A stretch of DNA of 64,000 bases from Centroscyllium fabricii (taxonomy: Eukaryota): NCBI GenBank assembly GCA_051313645.2, contig JBNRSN020000044.1:7812001-7876000 (forward strand). Reading direction: 5' to 3'. Below are positions 45,421-55,641 of the stretch, piece after piece. The notes beneath the pieces were generated by a model. The model worked only from the letters and a program-made list of their open reading frames with translations, searched no databases and was not told the DNA's origin. The translations under genes were made by a program, and so were the position numbers. Position 1 is the stretch's first letter, and the number at the start of each line of letters is the position of its first letter.

Positions 45421-46078
45421 CTACTTTTTATTAATCACAAGTTGTCTCATCACAGAGTTCAGCCATTTCTGTCGCTGCATCGCTGTCAGGAACTTGCTCT
45501 TTTCTCGAAAAGCGACATCATCAGCCACCACAATGCTTCTCTTTACTTCTTCATTGGTGCTTGGCTCCAGCCAATCAGATGACCAGCTTTTGCCCAGGGT
45601 AACCCTGGTCAGACCTGCACCATCTCCAAGTGTGTTGTGCGATTGATCGCCACGATTGCTGGGCTCTACTGGGAAATTGCCATCCCCAAGTGTGTTGTGC
45701 GATTGATCGCCATGATTTCTGGGCTCTACTGGGAAATTGCCATCCCCAAGTGTGTTGTGCGATTGATCGCCACGATTGCTGGGCTCTACTGGGAAATTGC
45801 CATCCCCAAGTGTGTTGTGCGATTGATCGCCATGATTGCTGGGCTCTACTGGGAATTTTGCAAACCAAGCTCGACGTCGTAAAGATGGCATCCACCAGCT
45901 CCCAGAGTCCTTTCCTGGGAGTCCTTTGAGTGTGGGGAATGGTGACTTCATCTCAGTGCCCCAATCAGGTAACGAGGCAGATGGATCCCAGCCTGGGACA
46001 ACCGGCAAAATATTCTCCACTTGTTTGGCTCCTGTCAATCCCGGCAAGTTTTCAATTTTCCAGAATGTCGGTGGAGAA
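45421..46078 (-). CDS. pth2: PTH2 / TIP39 precursor, terminal coding exon (pro-region + KR + mature SIVVADDVAFREKSKFLTAMQRQKWLNSVMRQLVINKK at 45537-45424)
   Basis: The C-terminal 38-mer after KR matches the TIP39 signature (xxxxADDAAFRE....L...ER..WLNSYM). Pro-region motifs PSxSLxDW and WxxDW...KR resemble fish pth2. Acceptor TACTATTGTAG|T, phase 2. Confidence 0.95.
45620..45855 (-). repeat. 60-bp in-frame coding tandem repeat (~4 copies) inside the pth2 pro-region
   Basis: Encodes 4 x FPVEP[S/R]N[H/R]GDQSHNTLGDG[N/A]. Confidence 0.95.
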
Positions 46079-46235
46079 CTACAATAGTACAATAAAATTT
46101 AATGTCAACATATCCAAACTCTCAATTAGATTCTAGGCTTTAAATCACTCCCAGGTATCATTATTCTAAATGTTATGTTAAGTAATTAGGACAAGAGATG
46201 ACCACCAGGATCATGCGCACTGCCCAACTTATTAT

Positions 46236-48100
46236 TGTGGTAATCGTATAAATACCACTGTAACTAGTTGATGGCTCACCTTGTATTGTATTGTATTGTA
46301 TTGTAGGCCAGGTCAGCCACACCCCTAACTCCTCCCCTCAGGTCGGAGCATATAGGTGAGAGCTGCCCTGCCCCCACTCATTCTTCGCCTTGACCTCATC
46401 AGGAGACCAGCTCCATTGTTAGTTAATAAAAGCCTGTAGTTTAGGTAACTACTCGTCTTTGCGTATTAATTGACAGTACGTCAATTTTATTAACTAAATT
46501 TTAAAACATGGAGAGTAACACAGTGAGACCGGATCGCCTCGACATAAACCCTCAGGCACCTGAAGCTGCTAATGACTTCGAACACTGGTTTGGCCTGGTC
46601 GAGGCCTACATGAAGGCCGTAAAGGCTACGAGTGATGAGGACAAACTCCAGGTACTCTCATCACGGATCAGCGGCCGGGTGTACTCTTTTATCCGCGGTC
46701 TCAAGACTTACGAGTAAGCAGCCAAGAAATTAAAGGACTGCTACATGCGCCCGGCCAACTCGGTCTATGCCAGGCATCTTCTGGCGACCAGAAGACAATG
46801 ACTCAGTGAGTCAAATGAACAGTTTCTACTAGCGCTCCAAGCCCTCGCACGGGCCTGTGACTGCAAGGCAAGGACAGCGGAGGAAGATGCGAACCTCCTA
46901 ATCCGCGATGCCTACGTGGCTGGACTCAGATCCAGCCAGGCTCACCAGGGGCTGCTGGAGCAGGACACACTGTCGCTTGAGTCCACGATAACGCTTTCTA
47001 ATGCGGTGGACGGAGCGCTTCAAATGCTGGATGTGTACAGAGATCACGGCTCCCACTGTACCCCTGACCCCTGGGTGACACAGCGACAGGCCGAGACCCC
47101 CACGATGGCAGTGGTGACTGTGAAGACACCGGCAGGGTGACCACTTACAACCCCCGGGGGAACGGCCAGGTAGAAAGGGAAAACGGGACCATCTGGAAGG
47201 CGGTCAACCTGGGCCTGAAGTCCAGAGGCCTTCCAGTTTCCCGTTGGCAGGAGGTCCTCCCAGATGCGCTCCATGCCATCTGCTATCTGTTGTGTACCGC
47301 CACTAACTCCACACCTCATGACCTGTTGTTTTCCTTCCCCAGGAAGTCGACTTCAGGGACAGCACTCCCGCTGTGGCTCACAGCGCAGGGGCCAGTATTG
47401 CTTAGAAAGCACGTCCGCAGCCACAAGACTGACCCCCTGGTGGAACGGGTGCACCTGCTCCATGCCAACCTGCAATATTCCCGGACGGGCACGAGGATAC
47501 AGTCTCGATCAGGGACCTGGCGCCCGCCGGGAGCACCAGGGCAGAACCCCCGGTCGAGCCTCAGCCCGACCAGCCACCACCCACCGAATACTGGCCCCCA
47601 TACACACACACACCGGGGCCCTCAACACCACCGATTGACGACCCGGGATCGGACACCACACCGCTGGCGGAGAGCTCGATCCCGGCCCTGCAACCAGCAC
47701 CACCATTGCCGGCACCCTGGCGGTCCCCCAGGCACACGCGACCACCGGAGAGACTAATAACGCTATGCTAATTGCTAATGGACATATAGAGATTTTATTT
47801 TTCCCTCACCCGAAGGCACGTTCACCCGGCCGGACTTGTTTTTAAAGAAGGGGTGAATGTGGTAATCGTATAAATACCACTGTAAATAGTTGATGGCTCA
47901 CCTTGTATTGTATTGTATTGTAGGCCAGGCCAGCCACACCCCTAACTCCTCCCCTCAGGTCGGAGCATATAGGTGAGGGCTGCCCTGCCCCCGCTCATTC
48001 TTTGCCTTGACCTTATCAGGAGACCAGCTCCATTGTTAGTTAATAAAAGCCTGTAGTTTAGGTAACTACTCGTCTTTGCGTATTAATTGACGATACGTCA
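46236..48100 (+). mobile_element. Internally deleted Gypsy-like LTR retrotransposon in the pth2 intron (LTRs 46236-46483 and 47858-48100; gag remnant fused to integrase C-half)
   Basis: Two highly similar TG..CA LTRs, PPT AAAGAAGGGGTGAA before the 3' LTR and TSD ATTAT/ATTAC. Gag-like ORF from 46508 with stops; integrase motif TTYNPRGNGQVERENGTIW..W...LP.AL...ATNSTP. Confidence 0.92.
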
Positions 48101-48729
48101 ATTACTAGCCTCGTTCCCCTATTCCCCCCCTCGCCTTCCCGTCCTTCCTCACCTCCCCATTCATCCTTCTTCCCTCGCCTCCCTGTCCCCCATCCCCATT
48201 CCCCCCTCCACCCCCCTTCACTGCCCTCTCCTCCCCTTCCACCATCCCCCCCTCACCTCCCCTCTCCCCAATCCCCCTCCCCCCAGCCACCCGCTCCCCC
48301 CCCCAGCCAAACCCCCCTCCCCCCTCGCCTCCAGGGAGAGGCAAAAACTCACACAGAGATGCAGCTAATTCAGGAAGCCTCTGACAAAAATTCCTCTGCA
48401 ACTCCTCAGAGATGATCAGGCAAGCTCCAGGAGGTCTTAGCCTTGATTATTACCCAAAATGTTATCTTTCTTTGCCACAATCTCGTAATATCCCAAAACT
48501 GCATCGAACACCTTCTGGAAGGCCTGCAATTAATCGATGCTCACGACCACTTCCAGAACCTTCTTCCACCAGTCTGAGAAAAGTGAAACTTTGAAACAGC
48601 CAACCCTACCCTCTGACGCCTCGTCTCCACCCACCCATCACCTCAAACAAATGATTCACTTGTATCTTATCAATACCCTTAGTCATTTTAAACGCCAGAC
48701 TCCGAAGCCTCTCCAGTGAATCAAAATCC

Positions 48730-49420
48730 AAGGTGCAAAGCCCTCCACAGTTAAACATGTTTGGGCCTGGGATCATCCTCACTGCTGATTTCCTGTCCTC
48801 TTTGGGGTGGGAAACAGGTTCATAATACTCCAGGTGAGGCAGGTGTCCAGGGCCTGTTCACCTTGGCTGCAGCTCTTGAAACTGTGCTTGAACCTTTAGG
48901 GAACGGTCAATGATTAATCCCATGTCTCTCTCCCTTTAACTGCCCCCCACTCATGGTACACTGTAAATAATTTCACATTTACCAACAGCTTGATGTCCAC
49001 ATTCCCAATCTGTCCAAATCCAGTTGTAATATATTTCCTTTTGAAGGTTCTAACCCTACTGCACTTTTTAGTATCATCTGTGAATTTAATTACTGTCTAC
49101 AAGAAAGGAACTCTGGGCATTCCTCTAGTGACTGCACTCCATTGGGAAGAAGTCCTATTTGAAACCATCCTTCAAGCAGGCTCCTTTTAGGTCATTTGTG
49201 ATCCATCTCACAATCTGACCCTTGACAGCAATGGACTTCATTTTAGCAGAATCATTCTTGTGGTATTTTTTGAACTGTTTTGGAAATCCAAGCAGATGAG
49301 ATCTGGATCCATCCAGACTCATCACAAACTGGATCAGGTCTGTCAAGTATGATGTCTGTTTTCTGATGCTGTGTTGAGTATTCCTACCAATCCCGGGTGG
49401 TCTAGATGATGGTTAATAGC
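48730..49420 (-). mobile_element. Highly degenerate CR1 RT fragment
   Basis: Residual motifs (HLLGFPKQFKK, KGQIVRWITN) and the CR1-like order of segments. Confidence 0.5.
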
Positions 49421-49759
49421 CTCCCTAATGATGATATACCAACAGTCAGGTTAATCTACAGATATCAGCTTGTGATTTTAACACTTTTTAAAATAAGAGC
49501 ATCACTAACAAAATATACAAATCATCTAAACCCCTCAATTAGATCCCAGCCTCTAATTCACTCCTGGATATATCAATCATCCAAACTCCTCCAGTCTGCA
49601 ACTGATGTCCAGATATTCACACTCCTTGATTAAGATTCCAGCCTGTAATTCATTTCTCGAAATCCATTCTATGTATAAAACATCCAAATCCCTCAAATAC
49701 ATTTTGCACACTGACAGTATAAATGGTGGCACGGACTGGAGCACCCCGGGGGGCAATTG

Positions 49760-50250
49760 ATTTGCTATCGCCCCATTTTCTATCACCCCATTCGCTATCA
49801 CCCCATTCGCTATCACCCCATTATCTATCGCCCCATTCGCTACAGCCCATTCGCTATCGCCCCATTCGCTACAGCCCATTTGCTATCGCCCCATTGACTA
49901 CAGCCCATTCGCTACAGCCCATTCGCTGTTGCCCCATTTGCTATCGCCCCATTCGCTACAGCCCATTCGCTATCGCCCCATTCGCTACAGCCCATTTGCT
50001 ATCGCCCCATTGACTACAGCCCATTCGCTAGCGCCCCATTCGCTACAGCCCATTTGCTGTTGCCCCATTCGCTATCGCCCCATTCGCTACAGCCCATTCG
50101 CTATCGGCCCATTCGCTACAGCACATTCGCTATCACCCCATCCGCTATCGCCCCATTTGCTACAGCCCATTTGCTATCGCCCATTCGCTGTTGCCCCATT
50201 CGCTATCGCCCCATTCACTATCGGCCCATTCGCTACAGCCAATTCGCTAT
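49760..50250. repeat. 14/15-bp minisatellite (GCCCCATTCGCTATC / GCCCATTCGCTACA), left part
   Basis: Direct periodicity. Confidence 0.93.
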
Positions 50251-53200
50251 CATAGAGTCATAGAGTCATAGAAAATAGGTGCAGGAGAAGACCATTCGGT
50301 CCGTCGAGCCCGCACCGCCATTCAATACGTTCATGGCTGAACACAAGAACACAAGAACAGAAGACACAAGAACACAGGAACACAAGAACACAAGAACCCC
50401 ATAAATAGGAGCAGGAGTAGGCCAATCGGCCCCCCAAGCCCACCCCCTCACCCATCAAGATCATTGCTGATCCTACCCTAACCTTCGTACCACTATCACC
50501 CTTCTCCCACCCAAAGAACCGTGTGATCTCCTGGGAGAGGCGAAAAACCGGATAAAAACCCAGGTCCAATTTGGGAAAAAAATCTGGGAAATTCCTCTCC
50601 GACCCCAATCCAGGCGATCGAAACTTGTCCAGGAGATCACTCAGGTCTTACTATACTAACCATAACTCAGGTCCACTTCCCTGCCCGCTCCCCGTAACCC
50701 CTAATTCCCTTGTCAGCTAAAAAACAGTCTATTTCGGTTTTAAATTTATTTAATGTTCCCGCTTCCACAGCTCCCTGAGGCAGTGAATTCCACAGATTAA
50801 CCACCCTCTGGGTGAAGAAGTTTCTCCTCATCTCAGTTTTAAAAGAGCCCCCCCTTATTCTAAGACTATGCCCCCTAGTTCTAGTCTCCCCGATCATTGG
50901 AAACATCCTTGGCGCATCCACCCGATCAAGGCCCCTCACGATCTTATACGTTTCAATAAGATCGCCTCTCATTCTTCTGAACTCTAAAGAGTAGAGTCCC
51001 AACCTACTTAACCTTTCCTCATATGTCAACCCCCTCATCGCTGGAATTAACCATGTAAACCTTCTCTGCACTGCCTCCAGGGCAAGTACATCCTTTCTTA
51101 AGTATGGACACCAAAACTGCACACAATATTCCAAATGCGGTCTCACCAATACTGTGTACAGCTGCAGCAAGACCTCCCTGCTTTTATACTCTATCCCCCT
51201 AGCAATAAAGGCTAAGACTCCATTGGCCTTCCTAATCACTTGCTGCACCTGCATACTAACTTTTTGCGATTCATGCACTAATACCCCCAGGTCTCTTTGC
51301 GTTCTATTACAATGCAGCTCCTCCCCATTTAGAAAATAACTTGCCCTATGATTTTTTTTTCCAAAGTGTATAACTTCACATTTATCAGTATTAAATTTCA
51401 TCTGCCAAATTGCTGCCCAATCACCTAGCTTATCTATATCCTTTTGCAGGCTTTTTCTGTCCTCCTCTCTCCCTGCTTTTCCTCCCATTTTTGTGTCATC
51501 TGCAAACTTTGATATATTACACTTGGTCCCCTCCTCCAAATCATTTATATAGATTGTAAACAGCTGGGGTCCCAGCACCGACCCCTGCGGAACACCGCTA
51601 GTCACCGATTGCCATCCCGAGTATGAACCATTTATCCCAACTCTCTGCTTCCTGTTTGAAAGCCAATCCTCTACCCATGCTAATATATTTCCCCCAATCC
51701 CATAATTTTTTATTTTAAGCAATAGTCTCTTATGTGGCACCTTGTCAAAAGCCTTTTGGAAGTCCAAGTATACCACATCCACCGGTTCCCCTTTATCCAC
51801 CCGAGATGTTACTTCCTCAAAGAATTCGAGCAAATTAGTTAAACATGACTTCCCCTTCGTAAAACCATGCTGACTCTGTCCGATTAAGTCATGTTTATCC
51901 AAGTGCCCCGTCAGTGTTTCTTTAATAATGGTCTCTAACATTTTACCCACCACAGATGTTAGACTAACCGGTCTATAGTTACCAGCCTTCTGTCTACTTC
52001 CCTTTTTAAATATAGGTGTTACATTAGCCTATTTCCAATCCACCGGGACCCTTCCTGACTCCAGGGAGTTTTGGAAAATTATCACCAATGCATCCACAAT
52101 CCCCACCGCTATTTCTCTCAAGACCCTAGGATGTAATCCATCAGGCCCAGGGGATTTATCCGCCTTAAGTCCCATTAATTTACCTAATACCATCTCCTTA
52201 ATGATCTTAATAGTGTTTAGCTCCTCCATTCCTATAGCCCCCTGTTTATCCAGCGTTGGAATATTTTTTATGTCTTCTACGGTAAAGACTGATACAAAAT
52301 ATTCATTTAATGCTTTTGCCATCTCCATGTTCCCCACCAACAATTTCCCAGTCTCACCCTCCAATGGACCAACATTCACCTTAGCCACCCTTTTTCTTTT
52401 TATATAACTATAAAAACTCTTGCTATTAGTTTTTATGTTTTTCGCTAAGTTACTTTCATAATCTATTTTCCCCTTCTTAATTAATCTCTTTGTTATTTTT
52501 TGCTGACTTTTAAATGCTTCCCAGTCTTCTGTCTTCCCACTGTATCTGGCTACCTTATATGCCCTCGCCTTTAGCCGAATACTATCCTTTATTACTTTAC
52601 TTAGCCATGGTTGGCTGCCCTTTCCATTACCCCTTTTTTTCTTCAGTGGAATGTATTTTTCTTGAAGGTTGTACACTAACTCCTTAAAAGTACGCCACTG
52701 CTCATGTACCGTCTTATTCTTTAGTCCGTTATCCCAATCTACTTTAATCAGTTCTGTTCTCATACCTTCATAGTCTCCCTTGTTTAGACTAAGTACCCTG
52801 GTTTGAGTTTCAAATTGCTCCCCCTCTAGTTGAATATGGAATTCAACCATATTGTGGTCACTCGTTCCAAGAGGGTCCCTAACTATGACATTTTTAATTA
52901 ATCCTGCTTCATTACACAGGACCAGATCCAAGATTGCCTCCCCCCTTGTCGGTTCAGTGACATACTGTTCTAAGAACCCATCCCTAATACACTCTATAAA
53001 CTCTTCCTCTAGTCTACCCTGCCCAGTCTGATTTGTCCAGTTGATATGAAAGTTAAAGTCCCCCATGATTACAGCAGTTCCCTTATTACATGCTTCAACT
53101 ATTTGCTGATTTATGTTCTGACCAACAGAGTCACAACTATTGGGAGGTCTATAGATTACACCCACTAGTGTTTTTTTCCCCTTATTATTCTCTATCTGTA

Positions 53201-53700
53201 CCCAAGCTGTTTCACTATCCTGATCATTTGACCCAATATCCTTCCTTTCTATTGCAGTTATTCCATCCTTTATTAAAAAGGCCACCCCACCTCCTTTTCT
53301 TTCCTGTCTGTCTTTTCTGATTGTCAAGTAACCCTCTATGTTTAACTCCCAGTCCTGATCACCTTGCAGCCATGTTTCTGTAATGGCCACAATATCATAC
53401 CTATACGTGCTTAATTGTACCGTCAATTCATCTATCTTATTGCGAATACTACGTGCATTCAGATAAAGCACTTTCACATGTGTTTTACTACCCTTTATTT
53501 CTGTTTTTACTCCTTTTACGACTCTACCTTTATCTTCATACATTCTGTATCCTCCTAGCACACTTTGATTTTCAGATTCCCCACTGAAACCCTGCTCTAT
53601 TTCCTTTACCCCTGTCGTTATTATCTCTCTTGAATCCTCCCCCCCGCTACTTAGTTTAAAGACCTCTCTATTGCCCTAGTTATATGATTTGCCAGGACCC
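50251..53700 (-). mobile_element. Young CR1 LINE, 5'-truncated at the end of ORF1, ORF2 complete except one in-frame stop
   Basis: ORFs 52029-53561 (APE endonuclease) and 50667-51953 (RT) lie in the same frame, separated by TAG at 52029-52031. Composite 3'UTR and (ACTCTATG)n tail. Confidence 0.96.
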
Positions 53701-53704
53701 TAGT

Positions 53705-54133
53705 CCCATTCGCTATCGCCCCATTTGCTATCGCCCTATTCACTACTGTCCATTCGCTATCGCCCCATTTGCTATCGCCCCATTTGCTATCTCCCCATTC
53801 GCTATCGCCCTATTCACTACTGTCCATTCGCTATCGCCCCATTTGCTATCGCCCCATTCGCTACAGCCCATTTGCTATCGCCCCATTGACTACAGCCCAT
53901 TCGCTGTTGCCCCATTCGCTATCGCCCCATTCGCTACAGCCCATTTGCTATCGCCCCATTGACTACAGCCCATTCGCTACAGCCCATTCGCTGTTGCCCC
54001 ATTCGCTATCGCCCCATTCGCTACAGCCCATTCACTATCAGCCCATTCGCTACAGCCAATTCGCTATCGCCCCATTCGCTATCGCCCCATTCGCTATCGC
54101 CCCATTTGCTATCGCCCCATTCACTATCGCCTG
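53705..54133. repeat. 14/15-bp minisatellite, right part
   Basis: Same unit as 49760-50250. Confidence 0.93.
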
Positions 54134-54319
54134 ATTCACTGAGGCCTGGTTCACTACCTGCCAAAGACCAGTTTCATCCCCTGGAGTTATCTGCATATCT
54201 CAGACAAAAGTTCAGAGCAAATAAAATTCAAACCTCACCAAATATAAACAAAGGGCAATATTTGTAGTGACTGGAAATTGAGCTAAATCAACAATAAATT
54301 CTCCCATTGGAGGCGTTAC

Positions 54320-55190: not shown

Positions 55191-55641
55191 CACAGAAATC
55201 ACTTTTCGTTTCTTGATTCAGGACAAGTGATGTTGGATGGCGTTGGATGGTGTTTGATGGTATTGGATGGTCTTGGATGGTGTTGGATGGTGTTGCTTGA
55301 TGTTGGTTGGTGTTGGTTGGTGTTTGATGGTATTCGATTGTGTTGGATGATGTTGGATGGTCTTGGATGGTGTTGGATGATCTTGGATGGTATTCGATTG
55401 TGTTGGATGATGTTGGATGGTCTTGGATGGTGTTGGATGGTGTTGGTTGATGTTGGTTGGTGTTGGATGGTCTTGGATGGTGTTGGATGGTCTTGGATGG
55501 TGTTGGATGGTGTTGGTTGGTGTTGGTTGATGTTGGTTGGTGTTGGTTGCCGTTGACTTGTCGTTGGATGTTGGTTGGGAGCTCAGCACTGATATTCCCT
55601 GTACTGCTTGGTTTATATAAGACTCCAGGATAATGACATCA
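55191..55641 (-). promoter_or_regulatory. Candidate pth2 promoter and non-coding exon 1
   Basis: Minus-strand TATA (TTATATAAAC, 55611-55620), CRE-like TGACATCA (55634-55641) and consensus donor GTG|GTGAGT at 55191/55190. Confidence 0.55.
55229..55577. repeat. 10-bp microsatellite (TGTTGGATGG)n
   Basis: Direct periodicity. Confidence 0.93.

Follow-up and report, generated by a model that had tools for sequence, protein, structure and literature searches.

The TIP39/PTH2 precursor encoded in the window (the whole stretch of 64,000 nucleotides analyzed here) carries four near-identical, in-frame copies of a 20-residue propeptide segment that occurs once in the other shark precursors compared. 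The array is best explained as a lineage-restricted coding minisatellite, probably tolerated as a longer spacer in a permissive region of the prohormone, a reading to which we assign a probability of roughly 0.75. A tolerated in-frame coding repeat was the second of two options raised by a first-pass annotation of this DNA, and it is favored by the single unit in eight other sharks, the low conservation of that unit, and the intact hormone and Lys-Arg (KR) processing site.

The shark TIP39/PTH2 gene consists of two coding exons on the minus strand, and its spliced product comprises 254 residues with one stop codon. Coding exon A (54426-54320, minus strand; 107 nt, or 35 codons plus 2 nt, ending at a GT donor) encodes the initial methionine, a hydrophobic predicted signal peptide (hydropathy scan) and the start of the propeptide. 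It is the sole hydrophobic ATG-led frame upstream on the minus strand, joins exon B in frame, and yields a product similar to the N-termini of shark TIP39 precursors. Coding exon B (46078-45421, minus strand; 658 nt, with an AG acceptor) is an open frame that contains the propeptide, the repeat, the mature peptide and the stop codon. Its product shows 67–83% identity to nine shark proteins and matches the Pfam family TIP39 (PF14980) with an E-value of 4.2e-19 and 68.6 bits against a cut-off of 27. The 8.2-kb intron between the exons (46079-54319, minus strand) has GT...AG ends and holds a LINE-type element, an LTR-element remnant and minisatellites. The mature TIP39-type peptide of 38 residues (45424-45537, minus strand; PF14980) has the same sequence as the peptides of Heterodontus and Mustelus. 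Judged by domain and layout, the gene is that of an intact TIP39/PTH2 precursor, and one TIP39 locus was found in the genome (G000; a single match among three candidates scored). With regard to naming, the elephant shark "PTH2" of the literature is a PTH-like gene and not TIP39, as stated in a passage of PMC4354418.

Upstream of the coding exons, positions 55191-55620 (minus strand) show a TATA-like box (55619-55612) and a GTGAGT donor (55190), and an acceptor lies 3 nt 5' of the ATG; these features suggest a non-coding first exon. Such a putative exon would match the three-exon layout given in the same source (PMC4354418, in part), and would hold a second minisatellite (10 bp × 31.6, 55231-55546).

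Tandem Repeats Finder describes the array in exon B (45620-45855) as a 60-bp period in 3.9 copies with 96% matches and 0% indels (score 444). On the minus strand, unit 1 (45796-45855) has histidine at a codon that alternates between His and Arg and appears as two alleles in sequencing run X1; unit 2 (45736-45795) has arginine at this codon and contains an RGD motif; unit 3 (45676-45735) has histidine and a private Ser/Arg difference at 45718; and unit 4 (45616-45675) has arginine, contains RGD and continues into unique sequence. Over the 56 positions compared, the units differ by the His/Arg base, by the private change of unit 3, in which Arg takes the place of Ser at unit position 6, and by one synonymous change, found in unit 4; the final residue of copy 4 is Ala, not Asn. 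The first-pass annotation had described four near-identical in-frame copies in a 254-residue precursor, in the order H, R, H, R with RGD in copies 2 and 4, and all of this holds; the unit sequence that it gave needs correcting at the two residues named for copies 3 and 4. The array has the structure of an exonic minisatellite, with head-to-tail units of 60 bp (more than 6 bp, and a multiple of three) inside a coding exon, and its copy number differs between species (one in eight named sharks, four here).

Upstream of the array lies Arg-Arg-Arg (45871-45879, minus strand; residues 103–105), a candidate convertase site, and downstream lies KR at residues 215–216. Dibasic pairs occur in the window precursor only at these two places and at the C-terminus, and no dibasic site was found within or between its units. 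The fragment from RRR to KR would comprise 109 residues, namely 5 before the repeat, 80 of repeat and 24 after it; it is acidic (net charge -10, pI 4.7) and has neither an N-glycan sequon nor an internal dibasic pair. The repeat was said to lie between RRR and KR, and both sites are indeed present, but it does not fill the span between them.

A first homologue search returned 12 proteins, nine of them from eight shark species. All nine contain the 20-residue segment a single time, which answers a check of copy number in other sharks proposed earlier: one unit in 8/8 species. Counted from the shared methionine, these precursors measure 190–194 residues (one of two Chiloscyllium models is shorter), and the window precursor corresponds to a normal shark precursor plus three extra units, a gain of 60 residues (254 - 60 = 194). 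The nearest named precursor is that of Pristiophorus japonicus (P0001), with 83% identity over aligned positions. Human prepro-TIP39 has 100 residues, according to a passage of a review (PMC12823539). The human baseline of about 100 residues used in the first-pass annotation is therefore correct in itself, but sharks are the appropriate comparison, and "greatly expanded" applies relative to mammals and not relative to sharks, in which the difference is only 60 residues.

Wider searches fetched 119 proteins, of which P0117 and P0119 were set aside as unrelated repeat proteins. At a threshold of 8/12 residues, none of the remaining 117 TIP39-like proteins has an internal self-match, against 12/12 residues in the window protein. 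A search for short proteins resembling the propeptide gave no match among 669 candidates, and the other homologue searches returned no repeat-bearing relative. A literature search, with most subscription papers outside its scope, found no published account of this repeat, and a repeat-bearing TIP39 precursor is apparently unreported. By eye, the divergent 224-residue protein P0118 appears to have two TIP39-like segments, each after a basic site.

Short-read contigs from 8 of 21 listed runs were compared with the window (about 55% of run X12 was covered). In run X1 (organism A), depth relative to the flanks is 0.94–1.06 for contigs with 31-mers present once in the window, 2.53 for 31-mers present twice and 2.76 for those present three times. 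The private site of unit 3 is covered by a contig at 0.99 times flank depth; one contig, which covers the beginning of unit 1, departs from the pattern with 0.44 times flank depth. In run X3, contigs that mix two- and three-fold words stand at 2.37 times flank depth. The assembled sample may be among those of runs X1 and X3, which are to be read as a check of the method, not as a second animal. The 5' contigs of three further organisms differ from the window at 14/428 (B), 15/418 (C) and 9/268 (D) bases, or about 3–4%; B and C come from one further study and D from a third. All three have contigs that join the tail of one unit to the head of another, and their repeat contigs have 2.38 (B), 2.29 (C) and 1.54 (D) times the depth of the flanks; contig depth is a rough measure and not a copy number, and the junction contigs have best flanks of 30 and 33 bases, none of them reaching at least 31 on both sides. 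We read these data as about four copies in organism A and two or more in each of the other three.

These observations bear on the possibility that the four copies are an assembly artefact, or that the repeat is spliced out, so that the protein would be an ordinary precursor of 194 residues. In its favor, no single record among the runs compared spans the whole array, each unit has a short pyrimidine run followed by AG, and there is no RNA contig over the repeat: X14, the one run guessed to be RNA, has a 176-nt contig over 45444-45619 only, and the incomplete contigs of X13 and X15 do not extend across the array. These three runs speak neither for nor against expression of the gene. Against it stand the private site of unit 3 at flank depth beside shared k-mers at 2.5–2.8 times, the unit junctions in three other organisms, and the homologous unit, which is exonic in all nine shark protein models. 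No joint that skips the repeat is listed for any of the eight runs compared. Because the X1 depths fit about four copies and junctions recur in three relatives, an artefact is unlikely; taken together with splicing, we regard this explanation as very improbable. Inclusion of the repeat in the mRNA may be presumed from the exonic single unit of the nine shark models.

The alternation of histidine and arginine had been taken to imply duplication of a 120-bp dimer. The two residues differ by a single base of a CpG codon; among the relatives, unit 1 has CAC (His) at this place in organism B, TGC (Cys) in organism C and CGC (Arg) in organism D. In X1, one unit 1 contig (depth 5) carries the Arg base and another (depth 4) the His base, which we read as two alleles; these contig depths, although rough, fit a base change slightly better than the loss of a unit. 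CpG decay on either strand is an established mechanism and is expected to give such a His/Cys/Arg pattern. The alternation is thus not fixed, and a 120-bp duplication accounts for it no better than recurrent mutation or conversion does; a dimer may have existed, but it is not implied by a single variable CpG base. The third-codon-position base at 45832 and its equivalents is the same in all four window units, but unit 1 of organisms B, C and D has another base there, a pattern predicted by homogenisation or re-expansion.

The same codon variability weakens the reading of the RGD motif as well as that of the dimer. RGD was found in none of the eight single-copy sharks and is missing from unit 1 of B and C; unit 1 of organism D has it, which shows that the motif also occurs outside the window genome. 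Among relatives, where the count covers unit 1 only, this amounts to one of three. The second allele of unit 1 in X1 would also read RGD.

Conservation along the precursor was assessed in an alignment of eight shark species (the second Chiloscyllium model was omitted) in 175 windows of 20 residues. The repeat segment has a mean pairwise identity of 0.53 with 2/20 invariant columns, the fifth lowest of all windows, and the mature hormone has 0.88 with 25/38 invariant columns. The 20 residues ending in the KR processing site (45538-45597, minus strand) reach 0.96 with 18/20 columns invariant, and are thus better conserved across the eight sharks than the hormone itself. These values indicate that the expansion affected a stretch among the most permissive in the precursor and did not extend into the conserved part, the repeat ending four residues before this most conserved pro-segment. 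A W-x-x-x-W pattern within the 20 residues before the cleavage site was seen in 42 of the 53 non-shark precursors in which the site could be located. The pre-KR segment is a candidate sorting or processing signal, or a candidate second peptide, and is a better lead than the repeat. In an AlphaFold model, helix is confined to the KR site and the hormone, the latter being the only part with helix at pLDDT >60; pLDDT is <50 over nearly all of the propeptide, but with an input alignment of 13 rows this is weak evidence of disorder.

Conceivably, the repeat, without activity of its own, acts as a longer acidic spacer that tunes hormone output through folding, granule sorting or the rate of KR cleavage. 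The acidity of the piece between the basic sites, the four-residue distance and the retention of the repeat under four related organism labels would be in keeping with such a role. The homologous segment varies freely among single-copy sharks, however, and judged by contig depth organism D (1.5 times flank) seems to have fewer copies than A; we consider output tuning unlikely.

A further proposal was that the basic sites bracketing the repeat could release a repeat-bearing co-peptide. Both RRR and KR are present, but the sites are not tied to the repeat: an upstream RR occurs in 7/8 single-copy shark species (it is absent in Chiloscyllium), where the RR-KR piece has 49–50 residues, and the basic sites are therefore older than the array. 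In P0071, a 196-residue TIP39 precursor with a mature peptide that is not of the shark type, Arg-Arg-x-Trp is seen by eye in mid-propeptide, hinting that the upstream RR site is perhaps older than sharks. In its fullest form, this proposal would have sharks cut pro-TIP39 at the old RR, giving a co-peptide with a nearly invariant 18-residue end that here gains a selected, multivalent RGD array as a second, adhesion-type signal of a neuropeptide gene; we think this very unlikely. A narrower version, in which predicted cleavage at RRR and KR yields a 109-residue co-peptide whose repeated RGD confers a new, selected adhesion or signalling function, seems just as doubtful. Retention of RR in 7/8 sharks together with both sites here, and the presence of RGD in the window array (units 2 and 4), in organism D (unit 1) and, by inference, in the second X1 allele, speak for it. 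Furin recognizes the consensus pattern R-x-x-R. The RRR site has Leu at P4 and departs from this pattern, Chiloscyllium lacks the site, RGD is absent from all eight single-copy sharks, and unit 1 has His in B and Cys in C. In addition, the passages cited from the review of the human precursor mention two sites, one preceding the hormone and one within it, and no other (PMC12823539).

The genomic surroundings are rich in repeats. Tandem arrays, several of them 2–7 kb long, make up 37% of the window, and this is the setting in which we place an origin by slippage or unequal crossover. A Pfam scan of 98 of the 406 window frames gave matches to retroelement-type domains only and no host gene next to the TIP39 gene. 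Within the intron, a LINE-type element (50670-53675, minus strand) has endonuclease and reverse transcriptase frames split by one stop, and an internally shortened remnant of an LTR-type element (46236-48103) has direct repeats of about 250 bp that are 93–97% alike and 1.6 kb apart. On another contig (L002, 1501-1574 of G000:C1044), an isolated 74-bp stretch is 95% identical to a unit tail and the sequence following it, and a contig matching it is also found in run X1. This second match in G000 is a fragment and not a paralogous gene.

Under the minisatellite reading, one 60-bp propeptide segment was likely multiplied by slippage or unequal crossover in an ancestor of the related sharks, and the four in-frame copies were probably accepted as an extension of an unstructured spacer. 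With a unit length divisible by three, in a segment that ranks among the least constrained, the array leaves the frame, the KR site and the 38-residue hormone untouched. The copies were probably kept alike by continued exchange, with the CpG codon switching among Arg, His and Cys. Secretion of the precursor and cleavage at KR would proceed as in other vertebrates; if the old RR is cut too, the usual shark piece of 49–50 residues would be lengthened to 109, probably without new activity.

Repeats that keep the frame of an exon are common: tandem segments are found in about one third of mammalian proteins, units that preserve the frame are the rule, and the bulk of VNTR variation is located outside genes and is largely neutral, even though some exonic repeats are strong in effect (passages in PMC12776774). 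We infer that the present array is neutral. Two points argue against this: the array persists under four organism labels about 3–4% apart, which selection could also explain, and exonic repeats with real effects include those of ACAN, FLG and the mucins (PMC12776774, in part). If neutral, the array would be a small, clean case of a coding minisatellite in that part of a prohormone which is most permissive, and might serve as a clade marker in sharks. If the RR-KR fragment were a real product, its importance would be greater, as TIP39 precursors are thought to give one hormone, and one-copy and four-copy sharks would offer a natural test of the role of the propeptide.

Repeated units in a secreted prohormone recall the multi-copy neuropeptide precursors. 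In proenkephalin, pro-TRH and FMRFamide-type precursors, each copy is an active peptide flanked by basic sites. Such precursors repeat the active peptide, whereas here the repeated part is a spacer without a dibasic site between copies. A multi-copy neuropeptide polyprotein was rejected on these grounds and on conservation (0.53 and 2/20 invariant columns for the unit, against 0.88 and 25/38 for the hormone). The 57-bp exonic VNTR of ACAN is a comparable case, a minisatellite of much the same unit size that keeps the frame of a secreted protein, but its units add glycosaminoglycan attachment sites with a measured effect (PMC12776774, in part). Human prepro-TIP39 also has two coding exons, a signal peptide and a dibasic site before the C-terminal hormone, but comprises 100 residues with an internal peptide of 31, and the second RR of the human precursor falls within the hormone instead of the propeptide (PMC12823539, in part). 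The closest counterparts are the TIP39/PTH2 precursors of other sharks, such as Pristiophorus japonicus, which share the layout, the KR site, the 38-residue peptide, the upstream RR and the pre-KR segment; these carry the 20-residue segment once in 190–194 residues, and the window precursor carries it four times in 254.
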